Source: Octopus vulgaris
Lineage: Eukaryota
DNA: 64,000 bases
Direction: 5' to 3'
Assembly: GCA_951406725.2 (NCBI GenBank)
Contig: OX597818.1
Span: 57,722,001-57,786,000, forward strand
The notes under the pieces are model-generated. The model was not told the origin of the DNA and did no database searches. It saw only the letters and a list, made by a program, of their open reading frames with translations. Below, in pieces: positions 3,159 to 62,340 of this stretch. Numbering within the stretch: position 1 is the first letter of the stretch; each line of letters opens with the position of its first letter. The translations under genes and the position numbers were made by a program.

Positions 3159-3667
3159 TGAATAAAAAAAATATTGCTAAATAAAATGACACTTCCTAAG
3201 AAAAACATAAAAGGAGGAGATGATTTAGAGAATAAGTAATAATTTAAACCACTTCCACGTGACGAATGGAATAATATATTTCTTTATTGCCCACAAGGGG
3301 CTAAACATAGAGGGGACAAACGAGGACAGACAAAGGGATTAAGTCGATTACATCGACCCCAGTGCGTAACTGGTACTTTATTTATCGACCTCAAAAGGAT
3401 GAAAAGCAAACTCGACCTCGGCGGAATTTGAACTCAGAACGTAACGGCAGACGAAATACGAATAAGCATTTCGCTAACGTTTCTGCCAGCTCGCCGCCTT
3501 AACAAATGGAATAATTATCGCTATAAGTAAAGAGAAGTACGTGAAGAACGGTGGTAGATGGTAGGTACAGTCGTGTATTTACAGAGACAGCCGTGCATTT
3601 ACTTTTTTGTACTAAGTATACAGTATAAGTGGGCGTTATAATAACCCAACATTTTAAAGATGTAACA
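3159..3667 (+). repeat. 3' LTR of the Gypsy element (interrupted by a SINE)
   Basis: Starts TG after the PPT and ends tgtaaca; its terminal ~60 bp resemble positions 21-82. Confidence 0.65.
3276..3501 (-). mobile_element. SINE family B (head ggcggcgagctggcagaaacgttagc)
   Basis: Matches the other family B copies; 14-bp TSD acgaatggaataat / acaaatggaataat. Confidence 0.9.
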
Positions 3668-7351: not shown

Positions 7352-7943
7352 GGTGCAGATTTACCTGGGTGCCAGGGATTCTTTCCCATCCCAGTTACAA
7401 AAAACCCAGACGTTTTGATGTGGTGTGAAAGAAGGAAAGTTGTAAATCTAATCGAGTTAACGGTTCCTCATGAATATAATATGGACGCCGCTCGGGCTCG
7501 AAAGATTGACCGTAATGTAAACCTCCTCGAGGAATGTGAAGACGCAGGCTGGAAAGCAGAGCATTTTCCAATCGAAGTCGGATGTAGAGGGTTAACTGGA
7601 CACAGTGTGAGACGACTGTTGTTATCGTTAGGTCTAACTCATCGTAAAGTCAATACCACCATGACCGATATCCAAACTACAGTGCAGAAGGCTAGCCACT
7701 GGATTTGGTTAAAAAGAGACGATGAGCGATGCCTAGAAGAATATTGAACTTTGTTTGATTACCAGTTGATGTACCAAGCGGGGCCTCATATCAATGAGGG
7801 GGGTGGGCTGTGCATTGATGCCGTCGAGAGGTAAGCCCCGAAGCGGCGCGCATTCTCTCCTGATGATCCCATACACTTGTTGGTTTCCGGTATGCGGAGT
7901 GTTTGACTTGTAGCACTTGCATGTGCAAGTTGTTTGCAAGACA
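7352..7943 (+). mobile_element. 5'-truncated HERO-like non-LTR retrotransposon (restriction-like endonuclease C-terminus plus 3' UTR)
   Basis: ORF 7415-7747 and upstream codons read PD..MW....VNLIELTVP.E....A..RK...L.EEC...GW....PIEVGCRG...AS.WIWLKR, the PD-(D/E)xK RLE signature typical of the HERO clade. Second copy at 38318-38643. Confidence 0.85.
7780..7866 (+). ncRNA. Candidate permuted hammerhead-like motif in the HERO 3' UTR (copy 1, GAAA mutated to GAAG)
   Basis: GGGGC 7780-84 pairs with GCCCC 7835-39; GCCG-TC-GAGAG 7820-30; GAAG-CGGC 7840-47; CTCTC-CTGATGA 7855-66. Confidence 0.45.
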
Positions 7944-8562
7944 TCGATCCCGAAAGGATAAAAGGCAAAGTCGACCACGGCAGAATTTGAACTCAGATCC
8001 CGAAGACGAACGAAATGTCGCTAAGCATTTTGCCCGTTATGCTAACGTTTCTGCCAGCTCGTTGCACTAAACTAGATATATGTTCTTAAATGCTTTCAAA
8101 AAAATCCTTTGCCAGACCAACCTATCTGCTAAAAATCATCATTTGAATTCCCCAGAAATTATGGAAATGATTCCGATCAAATAATGTGATATTTATCACT
8201 AAAATTGATATCACAACACTTTCCTTTTCTGTAAGTATATTTTAGATTCTATATTTAAGGCTGCGTTCTCCTAATTCAGCATCCTTATATGATGCGTGAC
8301 AGCAAGTCCTCATTGTACTTGGAACTGGTCCATAGTGTTAAGTTAAAAATAGGCAGATTAGATTTTAGAAAAAAAGCGCCGTGGTGAGTAAAAGTGAAGA
8401 GGCGATTAACACATAACTCACAGATCATTGATAGAAGATAAACTGACTAATCAAAAATATAAGTGTGATTTGATGTGTGTGTGTGTGTATGTGTGTATGT
8501 GCATATGTCTGTGCCTTGCACTTCTGTGCTCGAGTATTTTGTTTGCGTGTTTGTAGGTGTAT

Positions 8563-9033: not shown

Positions 9034-10039
9034 ATTTAACAAGAATTGTATTAGCATTTATACATTTAGGCAGGTTTAAAGGAGTGGTGGTGGGGGACTT
9101 TTTGGGGGTAGGCATAGCGCAAAATATCATACTTGGGGGAGTGGTCAAGGAGTCAGTGGTAAGTTAGATGAAGGAATAGATAAATAAAATAAATAAAAAA
9201 ATAAAAAAATAATAAAATAATAAAATAATAAAAAAATATAAAAAATAAAAAGTAAAAAATAAAAAAATATAAAATAAAATAAAATAAAAAAATAAAAAAA
9301 TAAAAAATATAAAAAATATAAAAAATATATAAAATATATATAAAAAAAATATATATATAAAATATATATATACATACAAAAATATATATATAAAAAAAGG
9401 GGGGATAGAGTTATAGGTAAATAAGGAGATTCTCACTTATACCTATACACACATGTATACGTATCTACACACACATACATACATTCACATATATATACAC
9501 ACACATATACACACACACACATATATATACATACATATACATACCTACACATACACACATACATACATACAAATATACATATACATATATATATATATAT
9601 ACAATCCAATACAGGCCCATTCCCTAATTTTAATTTTATTATCTTCATTTATTACTTTTGTTATCTTTGATCGCTAGGGCTAAGAATCCTGGCAATGGCT
9701 GCAGTCCATTTGTCTGTCTACTAGAAGGCAAGTACTCATTCCCGCACGCACACTCATTAGCACGTACATTCACCCATTCGTACACTCATACACATACACG
9801 TACGCACGCGTTATATTCATACATACAAACATCTACATACGTTCACGTATATACACATACGTACTCGTACCTACAGATTCGTGTCTACACTTTAGGAGGC
9901 TAGACTATACATATACACCAATAAATATACATACATATATATATATATATATACCCGCATATACATACACACACACACATATATACTCCTACATACAGAT
10001 ACATACCTATATATATATACATACATATATATATACATG

Positions 10040-10097
<58 letters not shown>

Positions 10098-11676
10098 TAC
10101 ACATACACACATACATATACACACACATACATACACATATATATACATACACAAACATATATACACACATATATATATACATACACACGTACACACATAC
10201 ATACGTATACATACATACATACATCCATACATCCATACTTACATGCATTTATACGCATACACACACCCATCTATATATATGCATATATATATATACATAT
10301 ATATATATACACACTCACACATACATATACAAATCCACGCACACACATACATACATACACGTATACGCATACACGCACATACACATATACATGCGTACCC
10401 ATACACGTGCACACACGCACGCGCATCCATACATATACACACACACACATATATATACACGTGTGCAAGCATACATGCATAATCATACGCGCACACATAC
10501 TTACAAATACATATATGCACACACTTACACACATATATATACATACACATATACATGCATACATACATATATGCATACATACACACACGCACTCATATAT
10601 ATATATATATACATACATATACACATATATGTATATATATATACATATATATATACATACATAGGTACACATACGCATACATACACATACACATACATAC
10701 ACACATATATACACATATATACATATATATATATGTATATATACACATATACACATACATATATACACACATACATACATATACATACACACACACATAC
10801 ATATATACATATACACTGATACACATACCCATACATACACATGCATATACTTATATCACTACATACTCACATATATAAACATATATACATATACACACAT
10901 ACATACATACATGTACATACACATACGTATGCATATACATACATATACATATATATGCACATATACATATATATATATATATATACATACATACACACAC
11001 ACATATACATGTATACATACGCAAAAATGATACACATATATACACATACACACACACAGACAGATGCATATACATACATATACATACATATATATATACA
11101 AACTACATATCTATATAAATACATACATAATACACATATACACACACATATATATACATTCATGCATATACATATACAAGTATACACATACATACACACA
11201 CACGCACACACATACATATACACACACACATATATACAAATACATACATACATACACACATACACACACATATATATATATATATATATACATACATACA
11301 CACACATATACACGTACACATATACATATGTATATATATATATCAACAAGGGAGGGTAAAGTTAATTAGTTATTAATCAATTTCATCAAGTGTTCAGTAT
11401 GTAAAGGGACCATTATTATTTTGAGTAAACAATGTTAGAGGGAAAAAATTCTCTAAGTAGTGGAAGAGGCTAAAAAACTTTATTGGCTGCTATTTCTAGA
11501 AAGTTTAGTATGTGGCAAAGTAATTTATTTTATTTTCCTAATCCCTAATTATATAATATTTTATACATACATACACATACATAAGCACATACATTTACAC
11601 ATACATATGCACATACATATATACACATATACATACAAACACATATACACATATACACACACACACACATACAAGC

Positions 11677-13089: not shown

Positions 13090-14639
13090 ATGTGTTTGTA
13101 TGTATATGTGTATATATGTATGTGCATATGTATGTGTAAATGTATGTGCTTATGTATGTGTATGTATGTATAAAATATTATATAATTAGGGATTAGGAAA
13201 ATAAAATAAATTACTTTGCCACATACTAAACTTTCTAGAAATAGCAGCCAATAAAGTTTTTAGCCTCTTCCACTACTTAGAGAATTTTTTCCCTCTAACA
13301 TTGTTTACTCAAAATAATAATGGTCCCTTTACATACTGAACACTTGATGAAATTGATTAATAACTAATTAACTTTACCCTCCCTTGTTGATATATATATA
13401 TACATATGTATATGTGTACGTGTATATGTGTGTGTATGTATGTATATATATATATATATATGTGTGTGTATGTGTGTATGTATGTATGTATTTGTATATG
13501 TGTGTGTGTGTATATGTATGTGTGTGCGTGTGTGTGTATGTATGTGTATACTTGTATATGTATATGCATGAATGTATATATATGTGTGTGTATATGTGTA
13601 TTATGTATGTATTTATATAGATATGTAGTTTGTATATATATATGTATGTATATGTATGTATATGCATCTGTCTGTGTGTGTGTATGTGTATATATGTGTA
13701 TCATTTTTGCGTATGTATACATGTATATGTGTGTGTGTATGTATGTATATATATATATATATATGTATATGTGCATATATATGTATATGTATGTATATGC
13801 ATACGTATGTGTATGTACATGTATGTATGTATGTGTGTATATGTATATATGTTTATATATGTGAGTATGTAGTGATATAAGTATATGCATGTGTATGTAT
13901 GGGTATGTGTATCAGTGTATATGTATATATGTATGTGTGTGTGTATGTATATGTATGTATGTGTGTATATATGTATGTGTATATGTGTATATATACATAT
14001 ATATATATGTATATATGTGTATATATGTGTGTATGTATGTGTATGTGTATGTATGCGTATGTGTACCTATGTATGTATATATATATGTATATATATATAC
14101 ATATATGTGTATATGTATGTATATATATATATATATATGAGTGCGTGTGTGTATGTATGCATATATGTATGTATGCATGTATATGTGTATGTATATATAT
14201 GTGTGTAAGTGTGTGCATATATGTATTTGTAAGTATGTGTGCGCGTATGAGTATGCATGTATGCTTGCACACGTGTATATATATGTGTGTGTGTGTATAT
14301 GTATGGATGCGCGTGCGTGTGTGCACGTGTATGGGTACGCATGTATATGTGTATGTGCGTGTATGCGTATACGTGTATGTATGTATGTGTGTGCGTGGAT
14401 TTGTATATGTATGTGTGAGTGTGTATATATATATATATGTATATATATATATGCATATATATAGATGGGTGTGTGTATGCGTATAAATGCATGTAAGTAT
14501 GGATGTATGGATGTATGTATGTATGTATACGTATGTATGTGTGTACGTGTGTATGTATATATATATGTGTGTATATATGTTTGTGTATGTATATATATGT
14601 GTATGTATGTGTGTGTATATGTATGTGTGTGTGTGTATG

Positions 14640-14695
<56 letters not shown>

Positions 14696-15696
14696 CATGT
14701 ATATATATATGTATGTATATATATATAGGTATGTATCTGTATGTAGGAGTATATATGTGTGTGTGTGTATGTATATGCGGGTATATATATATATATATGT
14801 ATGTATATTTATTGGTGTATATGTATAGTCTAGCCTCCTAAAGTGTAGACACGAATCTGTAGGTACGAGTACGTATGTGTATATACGTGAACGTATGTAG
14901 ATGTTTGTATGTATGAATATAACGCGTGCGTACGTGTATGTGTATGAGTGTACGAATGGGTGAATGTACGTGCTAATGAGTGTGCGTGCGGGAATGAGTA
15001 CTTGCCTTCTAGTAGACAGACAAATGGACTGCAGCCATTGCCAGGATTCTTAGCCCTAGCGATCAAAGATAACAAAAGTAATAAATGAAGATAATAAAAT
15101 TAAAATTAGGGAATGGGCCTGTATTGGATTGTATATATATATATATGTATATGTATATTTGTATGTATGTATGTGTGTATGTGTAGGTATGTATATGTAT
15201 GTATATGTGTGTGTATGTGTGTATATGTGTGTGTATATATATGTGAATGTATGTATGTGTGTGTAGATACGTATACATGTGTGTATAGGTATAAGTGAGA
15301 ATCTCCTTATTTACCTATAACTCTATCCCCCCTTTTTTTATATATATATATTTTTGTATGTATATATATATTTTATATATATATTTTTTTTATATATATT
15401 TTATATATTTTTTATATTTTTTATATTTTTTATTTTTTTATTTTTTTATTTTATTTTATTTTATATTTTTTTATTTTTTTTTTTTATTTTTTATTTTTTT
15501 ATTATTTTATTATTTTATTATTTTTTTATTTTTTTATTTATTTTATTTATCTATTCCTTCATCTAACTTACCACTGACTCCTTGACCACTCCCCCAAGTA
15601 TGATATTTTGCGCTATGCCTACCCCCAAAAAGTCCCCCACCACCACTCCTTTAGACCTGCCTAAATGTATAAATGCTAATACAATTCTTGTTAAAT

Positions 15697-18550: not shown

Positions 18551-18779
18551 AGGCGGCGAGCAGAAACTTTAGCACGCCGGGCGAAATGCTTAGGCTTATT
18601 TCGTCCGCCGATACGTTCTGAGTTCAAATTCCGCCGAGGTCGACTTTGCCTTTCATCCTTTCGGGGTCGATAAATTAAATACCAGTTACGCACTGGAGTC
18701 GATGTAATCGACTTAATCCGTTTGTCTGTCCTTGCTGGTCCTCCCTGTGCTTAGCCCCTTGTGGGTAGTACAGAAATAG
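18551..18779 (+). mobile_element. SINE family B
   Basis: Full-length match to the family B copies. Confidence 0.9.
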
Positions 18780-26160: not shown

Positions 26161-26393
26161 AGGTTGGCGAGCTGGCAGAAACGTTAGCACTTCGGGCGAA
26201 ATGCTTAGCGGTATTTCGTCTGCCGTTACGTTGTGAGTTCAAATTCCGCCGAGGTCGACTTTGCCTTTCATCCTTTCGGGGTCGATAAATTAAGTACCAG
26301 TTACGCACTAGGGTCGATGTAATCGACTTAATACCTATGTCTGTCCTTGTTTGTCCCCTCTGTGTTTAGCCCCTTGTGGGTAATAAAGAAATA
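26161..26393 (+). mobile_element. SINE family B (preceded by an older tRNA-type SINE head at ~25945-26100)
   Basis: Full-length homologue. Confidence 0.9.
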
Positions 26394-37808: not shown

Positions 37809-38317
37809 TGCCTTTCGTGGTATTTTCATATTGTGTATTATACAGCATATTATAATTATTGCTAGTAAAATTAATATAAACATGATGAAGCTTTGATGTA
37901 ATTGTTCAAGAAGAAAACTTTTTTCAGATTTATGTCACGCCATCACACCACATACATACGCGTTTGTCTTTCAAAGAGATTGCTGTAATATAATATATTA
38001 TATGCTGATTATAAGATTATGATATCATGTAGCATTACTCTAGTAAATATGTTTGTAAAAATGAGAATTTTATTATAAATATACTAGTGATATTTTAGAA
38101 TTAAGTTTTATTGAAGTCTATATTATGTGGTAGTAGCTAATGTATATGTTTCAATATTTAGTTATATAGGTTGTTTAATGACGTTATGCTACTTCGTAAA
38201 AGGTATCTCTTTTCAAAAGTGGAAAGAAACAGAAGACTCAAAGAGAGAAGATAAAATTGTAGTTATCTTAGGCCAATGACCCCAATAATGCTCCCCAATA
38301 ATGTTTCGCATAATTTT

Positions 38318-38643
38318 TGTTATCGCTAGTCCTAACTCACCGTAAATTCAATATCATCATGACCGATATTCAAACTACAGTGGAGAAGGCTAGCCACAGG
38401 ATTTTGTTAAAAAGAGACGACGAGCGACGGCTAGAAGAATATTGAGCTTTATTTGATAAACAGCTGATCTAGCAAGCGGAGCCTCATATCAGTGAGGGGA
38501 AGCGGTGCGCATTGATGCCGTCGAGAGGTAGGCCCCGAAACGGCGCGCATTCTCTCCTGATGATCCCATACACTTGCTGGCTTCCGGTATGCGGAGATTT
38601 TGACTGGTAGCACTTGCATGTGCAAGTTGTTTGCAAAACATCA
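38318..38643 (+). mobile_element. Second, shorter HERO-like 3' end
   Basis: Colinear with 7620-7943 and shares the same 3' terminus (ttgtttgcaa.acatc). Confidence 0.88.
38478..38563 (+). ncRNA. Candidate permuted hammerhead-like motif in the HERO 3' UTR (copy 2, all core nucleotides intact)
   Basis: GCCG-TC 38517-22; GAGAG 38523-27; AGGCCCC-GAAA-CGGC 38530-44; CTCTC-CTGATGA 38552-63; upstream GGAGCCT 38478-84. Confidence 0.55.
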
Positions 38644-39025: not shown

Positions 39026-39426
39026 TATTTCTTTATTGCTCACAAGGGGCTGAACATAGAGGGGACAAACAAGGACAGAGAAATAGATTAAGTCGATTAT
39101 ATCGACTCCAGTCCGCAACTGGTACTTAATTTATCGACCCCGAAAGGATGAAAAGCATATCGACCTCGGCGCAATTTGAACTCAGAACGTAACAGCAGAC
39201 GAAATACCTATTTCTTTACCACCCACGAGGGGCTACATACAGAGGGGACAAACAAGGACAGACAAAAGGATTAAGTCGATTATATCGACCCCAGTGCGTA
39301 ACTGGTGATCGACCCCGAAAGGATGAAAGGCAAAGTCGACCTCGGCGGAATTTGAACTCAGAACGTAGCGGCAGACGAAATACCGCTAAGCATTTCGCCC
39401 GGCTTGCTAACGTTTCTGCCAGCTCG
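39026..39426 (-). mobile_element. Tandem pair of SINE family B (one full, one head-truncated)
   Basis: Two consecutive copies joined at ~39208. Confidence 0.88.
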
Positions 39427-45067: not shown

Positions 45068-46071
45068 TTGCTGGAAACTTTCGCCCAATTATGTGAGCAA
45101 AGCAGCACGAAAGATATTTTTATTATATTCTATAATATTGTATTATGCTTTACGCTAGTCTGTGCTCGTGTTACTAAGTTTAAGAGTATGTAAATGTGTG
45201 TGAATTGACGCAGGCTGGTTTTTAAGGTGTTAAACTTACCCATCATGTTGGCGTGTGATTCCTTGAGCAATGCGCCAAGCCAGAACATTTAACTGAGGCT
45301 ATGCAAACGCTAATTGCTTGCGTAGCCGACGTATACCTTCAATCTATTACCAACTTTATTTGTCGAGGCAGGGTCTGTGTCAGCTAGTAACGACAGAGGC
45401 ATTAAAATCAATTAATGAATGCATATTACTTAGCATGGCATGCGATACTCATTTGCAAATGATAGTTGTGAAATGTACATATATGTGTGTGTACGTGTTT
45501 GTATATGTGTACATGTATGTATGTTTGCATTCGTATACAGTTACATACATACAAACACACTCACATACACACACACTGACACACACAGACACACACAGAC
45601 ACACATGTACACACACACACACAAACACACACATATATCCCCACAGTTCTCTAAGTACACTATGGAATACATCTGTGGAGTTCTGAATTGGAAGAATTAT
45701 TTGGGAGGGGGCCATTTGTTTTTAAGCCCTATTCATACAAACTCAACTTCAATGTAAAAAGTAGTTTGGGGGTTTCATTATTTGACAAAATTAGTGTAAA
45801 TGAATATGCACTTCATCTTGGATCATAAACATAACAATCACAGGAAAAAAATCTATTCTCACTCACTTATCTACCACAAGCTGTGCTTGTCTCTAACAAA
45901 AATTGTGTTAATTCAGTCACATTATATTTATATCAGATAAAGATGCTTGCATGTCAAGAGTTATCTGAAGCGTTTGCAAGTACCCGTAAAAAAGTAACCC
46001 CCACCCCGTATAAAACACAGCTCATCCATTTGCCCACTGGGATTTCTCATTGCATCATTTATTTTAAATAG

Positions 46072-46264
46072 GCATTTCCTCTGCCGCTACGTTCTGAGTT
46101 CAAATTCCGCCGAGGTTGACTTTGCCTTTCATCCTTTCGGGGTCGATAAATTAAGTACCAGTTACGCACTGGGATCGATGTAATCGACTCAATCCGTTTG
46201 TCTGTCCTTGTTTGTCCTCTCTGTGTTTAGCCCCTTGTGGGTAGTAAAGAAATAGGTATTTCGT
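46072..46264 (+). mobile_element. SINE family B (head-truncated)
   Basis: Homologue. Confidence 0.88.
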
Positions 46265-47707
46265 CTCGAGATTCACAAACATCTTGATTTCGTCTCTAAC
46301 CTTATACTTTCCTCTGAGTAACTGGATTCAAAATTATAATTTATTACAATTTTAACATCATATTTTGACATTAAGCACTGTTGTAAATATTTTAATCCAG
46401 ATAGTATTCCGAACAATTTGATCTCTGGATATCTTCAGGTGTCCTACGTATACTCCGATCCAAAAGGATACGGAAAAGAGATTTGATTCCCATGGAAACT
46501 TATGCCACGAGTGTTATGGATACTTTACAGCAGACTTACCGGCATCATTTTGATAATCATTTCTTCCTATCTGTCGGTCTGAGAGTGACTCATTGTGGGC
46601 AGGTTTTGTTGCAACTTGATTCAAGAAGAATTATCCATTCTGAAACAAATTTCTCTCTCCATTTCTCAAATTTTGTATTAGATGTTAATGTCTAACTTTG
46701 CACAAACTATTCCTGTCATATTTGTATAAGGAAAACAGGAACGTAAAATAAATGTTTATAATGTCGGAAAACAAGCCTAGTACAAGATACAGATATAAAC
46801 TCTACAAAGATTGGTTGCCTTTTCTTCTTTACTTCGAAGTATTGATTTTAACGCGGTGCCAAGCCGTTGTAGCAATGGTGGAGCCCCACCCGGTTTATTC
46901 CCTCGGGTACATTAACAAGATTTTAGATCGGCCTTCTATAACCAGTTGCGAAATCGATCAAGTATTTTCTCTCTCTGTCGTTTTCACTTCGTTTCTGTCT
47001 TCTTGTTATTAAATGCAGTTCAAATTTAGGATGAATGAATAATTTTGAGATAGAAGCATAGCAAATTTATTTTAACACAGAAGCTAAATCAATATAATGT
47101 TTAAATGAACTCAACTCTAAATTGATAATATTAAAGTGTATGAACAATTCTTGCATTAAATATGTACTATTGTCACAAAAGAAAATCAATAATCTTGTAA
47201 TTAATAGCACATGATTTGTAATTTAATATTCTACTAATTAATTTGCATTAACCTTAAATTGTTTAGGTTTAAAATTGATAATTTTTCACGCAACTATTTC
47301 AACGTAACGCTTTAGACTTTTTTGGTTTTTATGTTTTATTGATATCAAGTTTTCAACTGTTTTCTATTTATGATCTGACAAGAGTTAAATCAGTGATTGC
47401 AGGTTCGTGCATTCTGCTAATATTATTAATGTTTCCCAATGATGCTTGTATAAAATGCTATAATACATCACCTGCACTAAAACCGCCTTGTTCCCTGACG
47501 AACGCTAACAGAAACGAATGAAAATTGGAACCTTTCGATCATAAAACTCTTTCATTCCTAAATTTTATCCTTCATTCTGATTTGATTCTCTAACTTCACC
47601 TAACTTGATATTTCGTCACATATCTTAACTAGCCGATGAATATTTTCAAAGCAAGATATTCAAATACGTTTCATGGTTACTTGACACGTCATGCATAGAT
47701 TGACAGT

Positions 47708-53402: not shown

Positions 53403-53945
53403 GGGTAAAAGTAAAATGTTAATGCATATCATCGACCCTCATTGTTTAGGGTAGGTTAAACGATCGAACTTTAGAGAATGACAAACTCTGATCACCTTAG
53501 CTGTATTTGAAATTAAAATGTGAATCTCTACTACATGCTGCTAGACTCTAACCATGACACTTATCAATCGTTATTAAAAGCTGTTTCTGATTGAAGCTAA
53601 AATTTTTTGAGGCGGCGTTAGTCAAAGTCCTCAACTGCATTACGTCACTAGTACTTTATTCTATCATTAAATGAAAAGTTAATATCAGCAGAGATTAAGC
53701 TCTGAAAGGCACAACTTTTATTAATATTGCAAAACCGTTGTATTATCTCCAACTATTAGAGGATCTCATTGCTAGTATTGTCTCTCATTTCGACACAAAA
53801 ATAGCAGTTTTCATAGGAAGAAAATAGGTGATATTCTTACAGCTATTTCTAGTCTGCTACCTTGCTTTATCGAAACAGGATCGTTGAATGAAAGAATTTT
53901 TCCCGATGAAATTTCAACAACCAGTATAAAGGTGTGCAACAAATA

Positions 53946-54175
53946 CCTATTTCTTTACTACCCACAAGGGGCTAAACACACAGGGGACAAACAAGGACAG
54001 ACAAAGGGATTAAGTCGATTACATCGACCCCAGTGCATAAATGGTACTTAATTTATCGACCCCGAAAGGATGAAAGGCAAAGTCGACCTCGACGGAATTC
54101 GGACTGAGAACGTAGCGGCAGACGAAATACTGCTAAGCATTTTGCCCGGCGTGTTTCTGTCCGCTTGCCGCAGTT
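53946..54175 (-). mobile_element. SINE family B
   Basis: Homologue; 16-bp TSD-like aggtgtgcaacaaata / aggtgtgtaataaata. Confidence 0.88.
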
Positions 54176-61149: not shown

Positions 61150-62340
61150 TCACAAAGGACTATGTAAGACATGGTATCATTTTGGTATCAAGGAATTCAA
61201 ATTTAACACTTTCAAATATGAAACAGCTACCATTTACAAAAGCATTTCATAATGTGTGTTTCGAACAACAGGTTTTGTAAATTTGATGTTTTCTCAGTGT
61301 TTCAAAATCGTTTCCGTCAGTTTTGTACGATTTATTTCTACACTATCTATACCATGGTCAGTCATGCACTCTTTGTACAACTTCTCTACCTCTACTATAG
61401 ACATAAATTTGCCACCATCTAAAGACAGTTGTAAATCTGCAAAGAATACAATTTCTCCTGCAATGCTTTTAACACATTTTTCTTTGGTATCAGAAAGACA
61501 ATTACGTTCTGAGTTCAAATTCCGCCAAGGTCGACTTTGCCTTTCATCCTTTTGGGCTCGATAAACTAAGTACCAGTTACGCACTGGGGTCGATGTAATC
61601 GACTTAATCCATTTGTCTGTCCTTGTTTGTCCTCTCTGTGTTTAGCCCCTTGTGGGTAGTAAAGAAATAGGTATCAGTAAGACAACTTACATTTGTGCTT
61701 GTAGACCCTTTAGGAGAAAAACAATACTTTACCCACTGACTTGTCAACCATAATGTGTGGCACATTACATCTTTTGACAAGAGGTCTTTCTCAGCAATGA
61801 TTTCTGCATGATATACTTTCCAGCTCTCATCGCTTTTCTGCACAATTTCATATATTTGATTTCCAATATTATCAGTGCTCTATGCATGTAAATTTCCTAA
61901 TTCGTTCCCTTGCAAAAAGAAGCATTTAGATCTTCGAAATGATTTTGATTTCTTGATGGTTCTTGAACACTGGAGGAAGAAATGGATGGGTGACTGCGCT
62001 TGCATTCATGGGGTGATATTGCCTCCTTTGCTCTTGCTGCATCATATCTACCGTTTGTTCTCCTCAGATGGTCTGAGTTGTTTGCATTGGAATAACATTT
62101 TCTATGCCAGAATGCTTCTTGTTTTATCAAATAATCTGCAGTAATGCCCTTGTCAAAACCTCTGGATCTTTCAACTCGACCAAAGTATTCATTTGACTGG
62201 CGAAGTTTTGAAATGTTTCTACAGCTGGATATCTTACTGTGGCTCCAGTATTCTTGATTTGCCAGACGATGCATAGTTTGTAGTCAGTTACAGGATGTTC
62301 GAGATGGATTTGTTTAGAATGTGGATGAATTACAAATTCT
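61150..62340 (-). pseudogene. Decayed ORF of an unclassified (probably DNA) transposon
   Basis: Fragments LIKQEAFWHRKCY, DLLSKDVMCH and EVEKLYKECM...RTKLTETILKH; colinear on the minus strand and split by a SINE. Family not identified. Confidence 0.45.
61503..61670 (+). mobile_element. SINE family B (head-truncated)
   Basis: Homologue; TSD-like ggtatcagaaagacaattac / ggtatcagtaagacaacttac. Confidence 0.88.

Follow-up and report, generated by a model that had tools for sequence, protein, structure and literature searches.

Hammerhead strands downstream of the reading frame of an Octopus LINE

The finding of all strands of a hammerhead core in the 3' UTR of a LINE in the genome of Octopus vulgaris raises the question whether these strands assemble into a ribozyme, how its helices would be connected and what purpose it would serve in the propagation of the element. 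The locus is part of a stretch of 64 kb of genomic DNA, here referred to as the window, which contains two 5'-truncated copies of a LINE with RT and putative RLE. The label HERO, used here as in a preliminary description of this DNA, denotes a putative assignment to this clade. As already recognized in that description, both copies belong to the same family (88.7% identity over 327 bp in our comparison), the motif is located in the 3' UTR of an RT and RLE encoding LINE, all three hammerhead strands follow the stop codon of the RLE reading frame, by our analysis at 38517-38563 with the predicted cut 77 nt 3' of the stop, and helices I and III are formed by the pairings GCCG/CGGC and GAGAG/CUCUC. 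The features of both copies are as follows:

38317..38643, + strand, 327 bp: first 5'-truncated copy of the HERO-like LINE (RT and RLE), comprising the last ORF codons and the 3' UTR, 90.2% identical to the intact unit of L068
38443..38445, + strand: stop codon TGA of the ORF in the first copy
38469..38476, + strand: 5' strand of a distal extension of stem IV, predicted from sequence to pair with 38573-38580; seen in this Octopus family, both strands being paired in the MFE fold of an intact copy
38478..38481, + strand: 5' strand of stem IV, GGAG here and GGGG in intact copies, whose partner is the strand directly 3' of CUGAUGA
38482..38497, + strand: hairpin V, 6 bp with a 4-nt loop, abutting stem IV and stem II with 0 unpaired bases
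38498..38503, + strand: 5' strand of stem II, starting from G10.1, decayed with just 2 contiguous pairs remaining
38506..38510, + strand: 5' strand of bridging helix X, pairing with 38545-38549, the counterpart of type-SGC's interaction helix between stems I and II (PMC10085705, in excerpt)
38517..38522, + strand: 5' strand of stem III and GUC triplet (GCCG-UC) located by the descriptor, predicted cut after C38522; 5' ends of genomic copies pile up at the next base
38523..38527, + strand: 5' strand of stem I, GAGAG
38528..38530, + strand: linker between stem I and stem II, 3 nt here and 1-8 nt in other families with resolved stem II
38531..38544, + strand: 3' strand of stem II, GGCCCC (ending with C11.1), GAAA at 38537-38540 and 3' strand of stem III, CGGC
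38545..38549, + strand: 3' strand of bridging helix X
38552..38563, + strand: 3' strand of stem I, CUCUC, followed by the core strand CUGAUGA at 38557-38563
38564..38567, + strand: 3' strand of stem IV, immediately 3' of A9
38632..38643, + strand: 3' end of the LINE and putative priming zone, ~120 nt 3' of the cut, with no poly(A) and an exact end that differs among copies
7354..7945, + strand, 592 bp: second 5'-truncated copy with an open C-terminal frame to TGA at 7745-7747, 88.7% identical to the intact unit
7780..7870, + strand: second copy of the motif, failing the strict descriptor, with IV5' at 7780-7783, V at 7784-7799, II5' at 7800-7805, H17 at 7825, GAAG at 7840-7843 and CUGAUGA at 7860-7866

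For detection of the motif we have used a strict descriptor requiring CUGANGA, GAAA, UH, a stem I of at least 4 bp and a stem III of at least 3 bp beyond the U-A pair. In the window, it finds a single site on the + strand (38517-38563) and none on the - strand. Both copies have decayed: in the first, the 5' strand of stem II at 38498-38503 reads GGAAGC in place of the GGGGCC of intact copies, and the second, which had been regarded as another hammerhead, carries a broken core since GAAG replaces GAAA (A15.1 to G, position 7843). Rfam returned no match in the 64-kb window at gathering thresholds, in line with the earlier expectation that standard searches would miss the motif. The MFE fold of an intact copy differs from the ribozyme fold; the folding program used cannot form pseudoknots. 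A first look at the 2.8 Gb, 227-contig genome yielded ~2300 candidates for the 3' end of the LINE.

The window also contains a dispersed SINE-like repeat of ~220 bp (39026-39426, 3277-3493, 7943-8061, 18560-18779, 26168-26393, 46071-46266, 53941-54153 and 61503-61674), a piece of which abuts the end of the LINE copy starting at ~7.35 kb. Two microsatellite blocks at ~9180-11360 and ~13350-15550 are mirror images of each other, with an A-run facing a T-run and ATAC and TGTA arrays of equal length, which suggests an inverted repeat with ~2-kb arms.

Occurrence of the motif in related elements

Relatives of the LINE were collected by scanning metagenome contigs with 16 aligned C-terminal protein sequences, a procedure that is blind to the RNA motif. 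Of 147 relatives, the best 80, with protein identities of 30-52%, make up the set analysed, in which 70 loci retain at least 150 nt 3' of the stop codon. Within this set, the strict descriptor matches 41 loci, at a distance of 34-200 nt past the stop, compared to 0 of 3450 shuffled sequences, and a descriptor allowing one mismatch adds 11 of the remaining 39 loci, compared to 0 of 552 shuffles. Of the 28 loci left unmatched by both descriptors, several are truncated or in visible decay and a few are devoid of any trace of the motif. Two matches in 431 kb of sequence serving as control turned out to be additional copies of the motif. The 41 matching loci, together with the Octopus family, were clustered at 75% into 25 families. 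A scan of viral contigs with a C-terminal alignment resulted in 30 pattern matches, none of which was a relative. At four loci (L217, L231, L234 and L241), stem IV has its 5' strand within the last codons of the ORF and the ribozyme thus overlaps with the coding sequence.

Predicted wiring of the motif

Comparison of the families shows the predicted strand order to be IV5'-V-II5'-X5'-III5'-GUH-I5'-linker-II3'-GAAA-III3'-X3'-I3'-CUGANGA-IV3'. The strand preceding GAAA finds its partner 20-25 nt 5' of the cut, in a segment that begins with G in 23 of 23 resolved cases, and this nearer window for stem II obtains a pairing score of 13.8 compared to a background of 7.7 in the 25 families. The partner of the strand following CUGANGA is located farther upstream, where it forms stem IV (21.2 compared to 9.2). 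The gap between stems IV and II is filled by hairpin V, generating a perfect four-way junction with 0 unpaired bases at its four corners in 23 of 25 families. If a stem IV of at least 4 bp is also demanded, such junctions are found in 20 of 25 families compared to 12 of 600 cross-family pairings.

This wiring differs from the one initially proposed, in which the first G-rich strand (38478-38484) served as partner in helix II and the nucleotides 3' of CUGAUGA were placed in a separate local hairpin, and in which stem IV and hairpin V between A9 and G10.1 as well as the bridging helix were overlooked. In the two decayed copies of the window, the first strand is indeed the better local partner. 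Across families, the same assignment scores 8.8 compared to a cross-family background of 8.4 and is the best of all in 3 of 25 cases, the true partner of stem II being the second G-rich strand (38498-38503), with the first one pairing with the strand 3' of CUGAUGA instead. In view of the much higher scores of stems IV and II, we regard the initial assignment as hardly credible.

Covariation was analysed in a MAFFT alignment based on sequence only, whose 30 rows contain representatives of the 25 families and L178, L186, L208, L212 and L255. Seven rows, including the Octopus family, are misaligned at the cleavage strand and were retained. With a structure string taken from rows L200 and L184, which leans towards these rows, and with stems I and III preselected in 25 rows, the resulting statistic is partly built in; with this limit, 84.2% of cells are paired compared to 61.1% in shuffled and 32-46% in slid controls, and 220 two-sided changes, compared to 75.6 after shuffling, are distributed over 27 of 30 pairs. 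No preselection applied to stems II, IV, V and X or to the core pairs. All six helices covary, among them helix X with 77.8% of its cells paired and two-sided changes in 3 of 3 pairs.

The core strands CUGANGA, GAAA and NUH are present, adjoined by stems I, II and III, the feature that defines membership among hammerheads. G10.1-C11.1 is found in 27 of 30 rows and G16.2-C15.2 in 25 of 25 families, the latter without being required by the descriptor. H17 is occupied by C, U or A in 9, 9 and 7 of the 25 families and N7 is free to vary. The pair C3-G8, present in 27 rows, is replaced by U3-A8 in two (L208 and L212) and by another combination in one, and a third copy with U3-A8 was found in L201. 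The same exchange is a known active covariation of the hammerhead core (PMC3088659 and PMC4209133, both in excerpt). Judged from these positions, the pattern of conservation is that of a catalytic hammerhead. At L188, the core in the 3' UTR combines U3 and G8 in the strand UUGAAGA and may represent an intermediate in the exchange of C3-G8 and U3-A8. The loops of hairpin V in L181, L200, L216, L226, L235, L236 and others contain a palindromic UGAUCA/GAUC or GACGU/C word, possibly reflecting a kissing or dimer contact.

Relation to known hammerhead ribozymes

Types I, II and III (CGS, GSC and SCG) follow the circular three-way order S-C-G, from which the LINE motif departs with its order S-G-C. 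The preliminary description was thus correct in noting a non-circular arrangement and a short linker between helices I and II, whereas its proposal of an undescribed topology holds in part. Type-SGC, reported by Eckert et al. (2023; PMC10085705, in excerpt), already displays the S-G-C order, a ~3-nt linker between stems I and II and a helix bridging both stems, and was shown to cleave, and therefore the order alone is not new. The LINE motif resembles type-SGC/CSG/GCS (HRIMA-1) in the order of strands, the short linker and the core nucleotides, and type-SGC in an extra helix that links stems I and II on their other sides (PMC10085705, in excerpt).

Both differ in the connection to stem II. In type-SGC, as described in the same excerpt, stem II is formed by the strand following CUGANGA. 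We have tried this pairing for the LINE motif and rejected it, as the strand following CUGANGA and the one preceding GAAA show a pairing run of 0 in 22, 1 in 1 and 2 in 2 of the 25 families. Instead, the chain of the LINE motif is opened between A9 and 10.1, where stem IV and hairpin V generate the four-way junction. The excerpt of PMC10085705 assumes that CUGANGA and the adjacent paired nucleotides cannot be interrupted, and the core insertions listed in the excerpt of PMC3088659 are confined to 1-2 nt. A further difference concerns the origin of the sequences, since the LINE motif is genomic and part of LINEs, whereas the excerpt of PMC10085705 places non-circular types, type-SGC included, in metatranscriptomes and metagenomes, with the exception of one bacterial candidate; type-SGC itself was reported from metatranscriptomes only and from none of the known genomes. 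In the full-text literature outside subscription journals, Repbase Reports and patents, we found no description of the topology of the LINE motif or of a ribozyme in HERO elements; while the S-G-C order is catalogued, an insertion between A9 and 10.1 was not found described. As a structure, the motif is strongly supported by the comparison as a hammerhead fold that is conserved, permuted in a non-circular manner and furnished with a predicted four-way junction between CUGANGA and stem II.

5' ends of genomic copies at the predicted cleavage site

If the motif cleaves, its activity may have left footprints in the DNA. In a census of 5' ends, we have used patterns that demand bases foreign to the element upstream of a fixed core and that list truncations within a defined interval, with p values calculated against a uniform spread. 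In the interval -15..+1, 18 of 30 loci examined (from 36 matches) are true truncations, 11 of which start at +1 (p=1.2e-9), and in the interval -4..+12, which shares loci with the former, true truncations account for 11 of 24 loci with 7 starting at +1 (p=1e-6). Conversely, no more than 4 starts are found at any position between +13 and +30 (30 loci examined of 33 matches). The union of the sets contains at least 16 distinct copies starting at +1, of which 5 are young, 3 intermediate and 6 old, with 2 left unassigned. At a lower bound of 16 of 696, such starts make up ~2-3% of copies. In one of them (L089), an internal stretch of the ORF is directly joined to +1. Two other origins of the pile-up were considered and rejected: microhomology, since the flanks end with AT, TT, TA, AG or GT and never with the element's own upstream bases, and a single short master element, since three subfamilies are represented.

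In 620 of 696 copies, G-T-Y is still joined to the base at +1, and no indel was found at the cut among 31 aligned copies. Such joins fit a circle and equally an uncut template. It had been cautioned that the presence of sequence on both sides of the cut would require slow or absent cleavage. This caveat is weakened by the at least 16 copies that start exactly at the cut, and intact junctions in DNA are to be expected if the template is re-ligated. The pile-up would most simply be caused by RNA whose 5' end lies at the site cut by the hammerhead, and from these indirect DNA footprints we consider it very likely that the motif cleaves in vivo.

Organization of the LINE

Young copies of the LINE in the genome contain open frames of more than 1100 aa. 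A frame of 1112 aa matches RVT_1 (E=5e-19), with R2 and L1 proteins as best matches in the PDB. In its C-terminal translation, a CCHC knuckle and PD-(D/E)xK-type motifs are recognized by eye with no profile match, and a Pfam search with the C-terminal 132 aa matched no family.

A protein search supplied 20 long copies, of which 7 are organized as partial tandems, as is L054, all with an identical junction. In these, a 3' part of 248-1981 bp precedes a full unit of 3734-3738 bp (the full unit having 3737 bp). A junction pattern, which sees near-exact junctions only, identified 23 copies, including one duplicate pair. The upstream parts of these copies start between +96 and beyond -1394, none of them at +1, and 19 of the 23 read across the upstream cut site. 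Private variants common to both tandem copies are present at 4 of 13 comparable loci (2 in L071, 4 in L072, 14 in L310 and 6 in L312) and were not found at the other 9, and the similarity between tandem partners in L312, L313, L318 and L321 does not exceed that to another locus. Terminal 3' ends are found at varying points of the same sequence continuing past the junction and carry no poly(A), therefore pointing to internal priming. In other families, terminal or tandem repeats are found in L184, L201, L208, L221 and L226, the 3' end continues into sequence resembling a 5' UTR at 6 of 11 loci tested, and in L208 an ORF follows downstream of the 3' end.

Several further observations concern the structure of individual copies. 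Partial tandems in L313, L321, L322, L310 and L314 carry internal deletions and retain the junction and the 3' UTR, with tandem periods of 1440 bp in L313, 1153 bp in L321 and 3088 bp in L310. A contig of 1283 nt from run X1, at a depth of 76 (on L068:1690-5400), closes onto itself and represents an internally deleted unit of ~1.25 kb with ribozyme and 5' UTR kept, and runs X3 and X10 contain another deletion that matches the genomic L313. These deleted units are possibly non-autonomous derivatives. As evidence for circular RNA, the self-closing contig was rejected, since DNA contigs L201 and L208 also self-close. In the contigs of four runs presumed to be RNA, neither starts nor ends accumulate at one place, an outcome that bears on cleavage in neither direction. 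In L197, two families of ~70% identity follow head-to-tail in one contig with a ribozyme in each, which would be either a mixed tandem or a chimeric assembly. Downstream of the tandem junction, the 5' UTR of the intact unit (L068:1912-2050) contains a series of five short hairpins whose loops are of the GGAAAGAC type, and similar hairpins are found in L184, L189, L216, L217 and L226; our guess is that they act as protein-binding or cap-independent translation signals of an uncapped or circular RNA. In L206, L229 and L195, a tRNA-like A/B-box sequence is apparent by eye right after the ORF stop and 5' of the ribozyme, which could be an internal Pol III promoter; ARAGORN called no tRNA at 8 loci. 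Finally, many copies terminate at their 3' side mostly at AT, with (TA)n or (TC)n frequently coming next, which suggests a preference of the LINE for AT or microsatellite targets.

A proposed route of replication

In our favoured reading, the conserved fold would self-cleave after GUH, and partial-tandem transcripts would be processed to a unit RNA, which would probably undergo circularisation before the RT copies it from an internal start, a sequence of events that we hold to be likely on balance. Transcription across a partial-tandem locus would meet two ribozymes, and two cuts would release a unit RNA reaching from +1 to -1 with 5'-OH and cyclic-phosphate ends. The ribozyme itself or a ligase of the host may join these ends and, given cleavage, a covalent circle is the outcome we would expect with some confidence. 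The RT-RLE protein would then prime ~120 nt 3' of the cut. On a circle, the RT may cover less or more than one unit, resulting in truncated copies and in new partial tandems with an intact ribozyme, whereas on unligated RNA it would run off after ~120 nt, leaving short copies that start exactly at +1. This assignment of internal priming, with tandem and truncated copies originating from circles and +1 copies from unligated RNA, appears to us quite probable. Head-to-tail tandems that are partial, share one exact junction and vary in their internal priming are expected from a cut and circularised RNA. The same model with self-cleavage, ligation to a circle and more-than-unit reverse transcription yielding head-to-tail copies was proposed for Penelope-like elements (PLEs; PMC4209133, in excerpt), for one of which internal priming was shown in vitro (PMC11167929, in excerpt). 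We regard a cut-and-circle route in an RLE LINE clade as plausible.

Part of these steps would be dispensable if the ribozyme cuts with no covalent circle being formed and the RT primes near the 5' end of a linear unit and jumps from +1 to -1 of the same or a sister RNA. End-to-end template jumping is a property of R2-type RTs. Failed jumps would explain the pile-up at +1, and the ORF stretch joined to +1 in L089 is what a jump from that end would yield. Every long copy would nevertheless require one or two flawless jumps, and the exact joins and missing indels at the cut described above argue against a process of this kind, which we consider unlikely. A quite improbable alternative retains the ribozyme as a slow or conditional one, with long copies originating from uncut read-through of partial-tandem donors and cleavage trimming or limiting a fraction of them. 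It would be in keeping with the majority of copies crossing the cut site, with tandem copies that sometimes lack common variants and with the low rates of 0.007-0.19 per min of type-SGC relatives (PMC10085705, in excerpt). Yet the upstream partial copy, unless regenerated, would become shorter by 5' truncation with every generation, the presence of private variants in both copies would need a single-unit template or gene conversion, and the core nucleotides are kept across families despite the divergence of their proteins.

The motif might also be a non-catalytic binding site for a protein that merely resembles a hammerhead, with the +1 pile-up reflecting an RT stop. LINE proteins usually bind their own RNA in the 3' UTR, where the motif resides. 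A binding site would not account for the preservation of all positions of the catalytic core, the hammerhead-like variation at N7 and H17 and the change from C3-G8 to U3-A8. As judged from the structure, there would also be no helix to block the RT at +1 since the downstream strands of stems I, III, II, X and IV have by then been copied, and we regard this explanation as very improbable.

Relation to other retroelements

The proposed route shows similarities to several known systems. As in PLEs, there are partial tandems, one hammerhead per unit and an internal start of reverse transcription (PMC4209133, PMC11167929 and PMC6765202, all in excerpt), and a circular template giving rise to more-than-unit cDNA has been proposed for the latter (PMC4209133, in excerpt). 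In PLEs, according to the same three excerpts, the RT is telomerase-like, the nuclease is of the GIY-YIG type and the hammerheads in the pseudo-LTRs are mostly minimal ones of type I that cleave as dimers, whereas the LINE described here combines an R2/L1-like RT and a putative RLE-type C-terminus with a complete permuted ribozyme of the monomer type. With the HDV-like ribozymes at the 5' end of R2 and L1Tc (PMC6765202, in excerpt) and the twister variants at the 5' end of Perere-3 (PMC8501958, in excerpt), it shares a ribozyme that would define the 5' end of the RNA and an insertion boundary that marks the cut. Those ribozymes reside at the 5' end and free the element from a host transcript (PMC6765202 and PMC8501958, in excerpt), whereas the LINE motif is located 3' of the ORF and straddles the cut, with most DNA copies keeping both halves. 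Retrozymes are retroelements with hammerhead-processed circular RNAs and a tandem form; in contrast to the LINE, which encodes its own RT and putative nuclease, they are non-autonomous and carry type I or III hammerheads (PMC4918200 and 10.64898/2026.07.22.740005, both in excerpt). HERO elements resemble the LINE in their single ORF with RT, in an RLE-type C-terminus, putative for the LINE, and in a dispersed, non-specific insertion often into AT-rich or microsatellite DNA (PMC4640811, in excerpt). A ribozyme, tandem or circular-RNA feature of HERO was not found in the excerpts of PMC4640811, PMC7650587, PMC13580325 and PMC13708176 that were searched, and the excerpt of 10.64898/2026.07.22.740005 holds no mention of HERO.

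Whereas the S-G-C order was known, the hammerhead wiring with a four-way junction is new with regard to the papers searched and the replication route is likely a new one for LINEs. Unit-length, probably circular templates generated by a hammerhead have so far been proposed only for PLEs and retrozymes. The LINE motif breaks the published rule of just six possible orders of hammerhead blocks and brings non-circular permutations, known from rare metatranscriptome contigs, to dozens of animal LINE families missed by Rfam. If true, it would be the first non-circular RNA permutation in animal genomes and convergent with PLEs. Its perfect four-way junction at A9/10.1 offers a fresh handle for ribozyme engineering, and a self-circularising template for an RT-RLE protein would be of interest for tools of RNA-templated gene insertion. 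We slightly favour the wider view that an entire clade of autonomous RLE LINEs employs ribozyme-made circular RNA and rolling-circle TPRT, with a seventh natural hammerhead permutation whose presumed indivisible block of CUGANGA and stem II is opened and then closed by a four-way junction. For a LINE with neither a poly(A) tail nor a fixed 5' end, it would provide a testable answer to how full length is regained, namely by cutting, circularising and rolling, and the young intact copies in the Octopus genome make the claims on ribozyme and replication directly testable.
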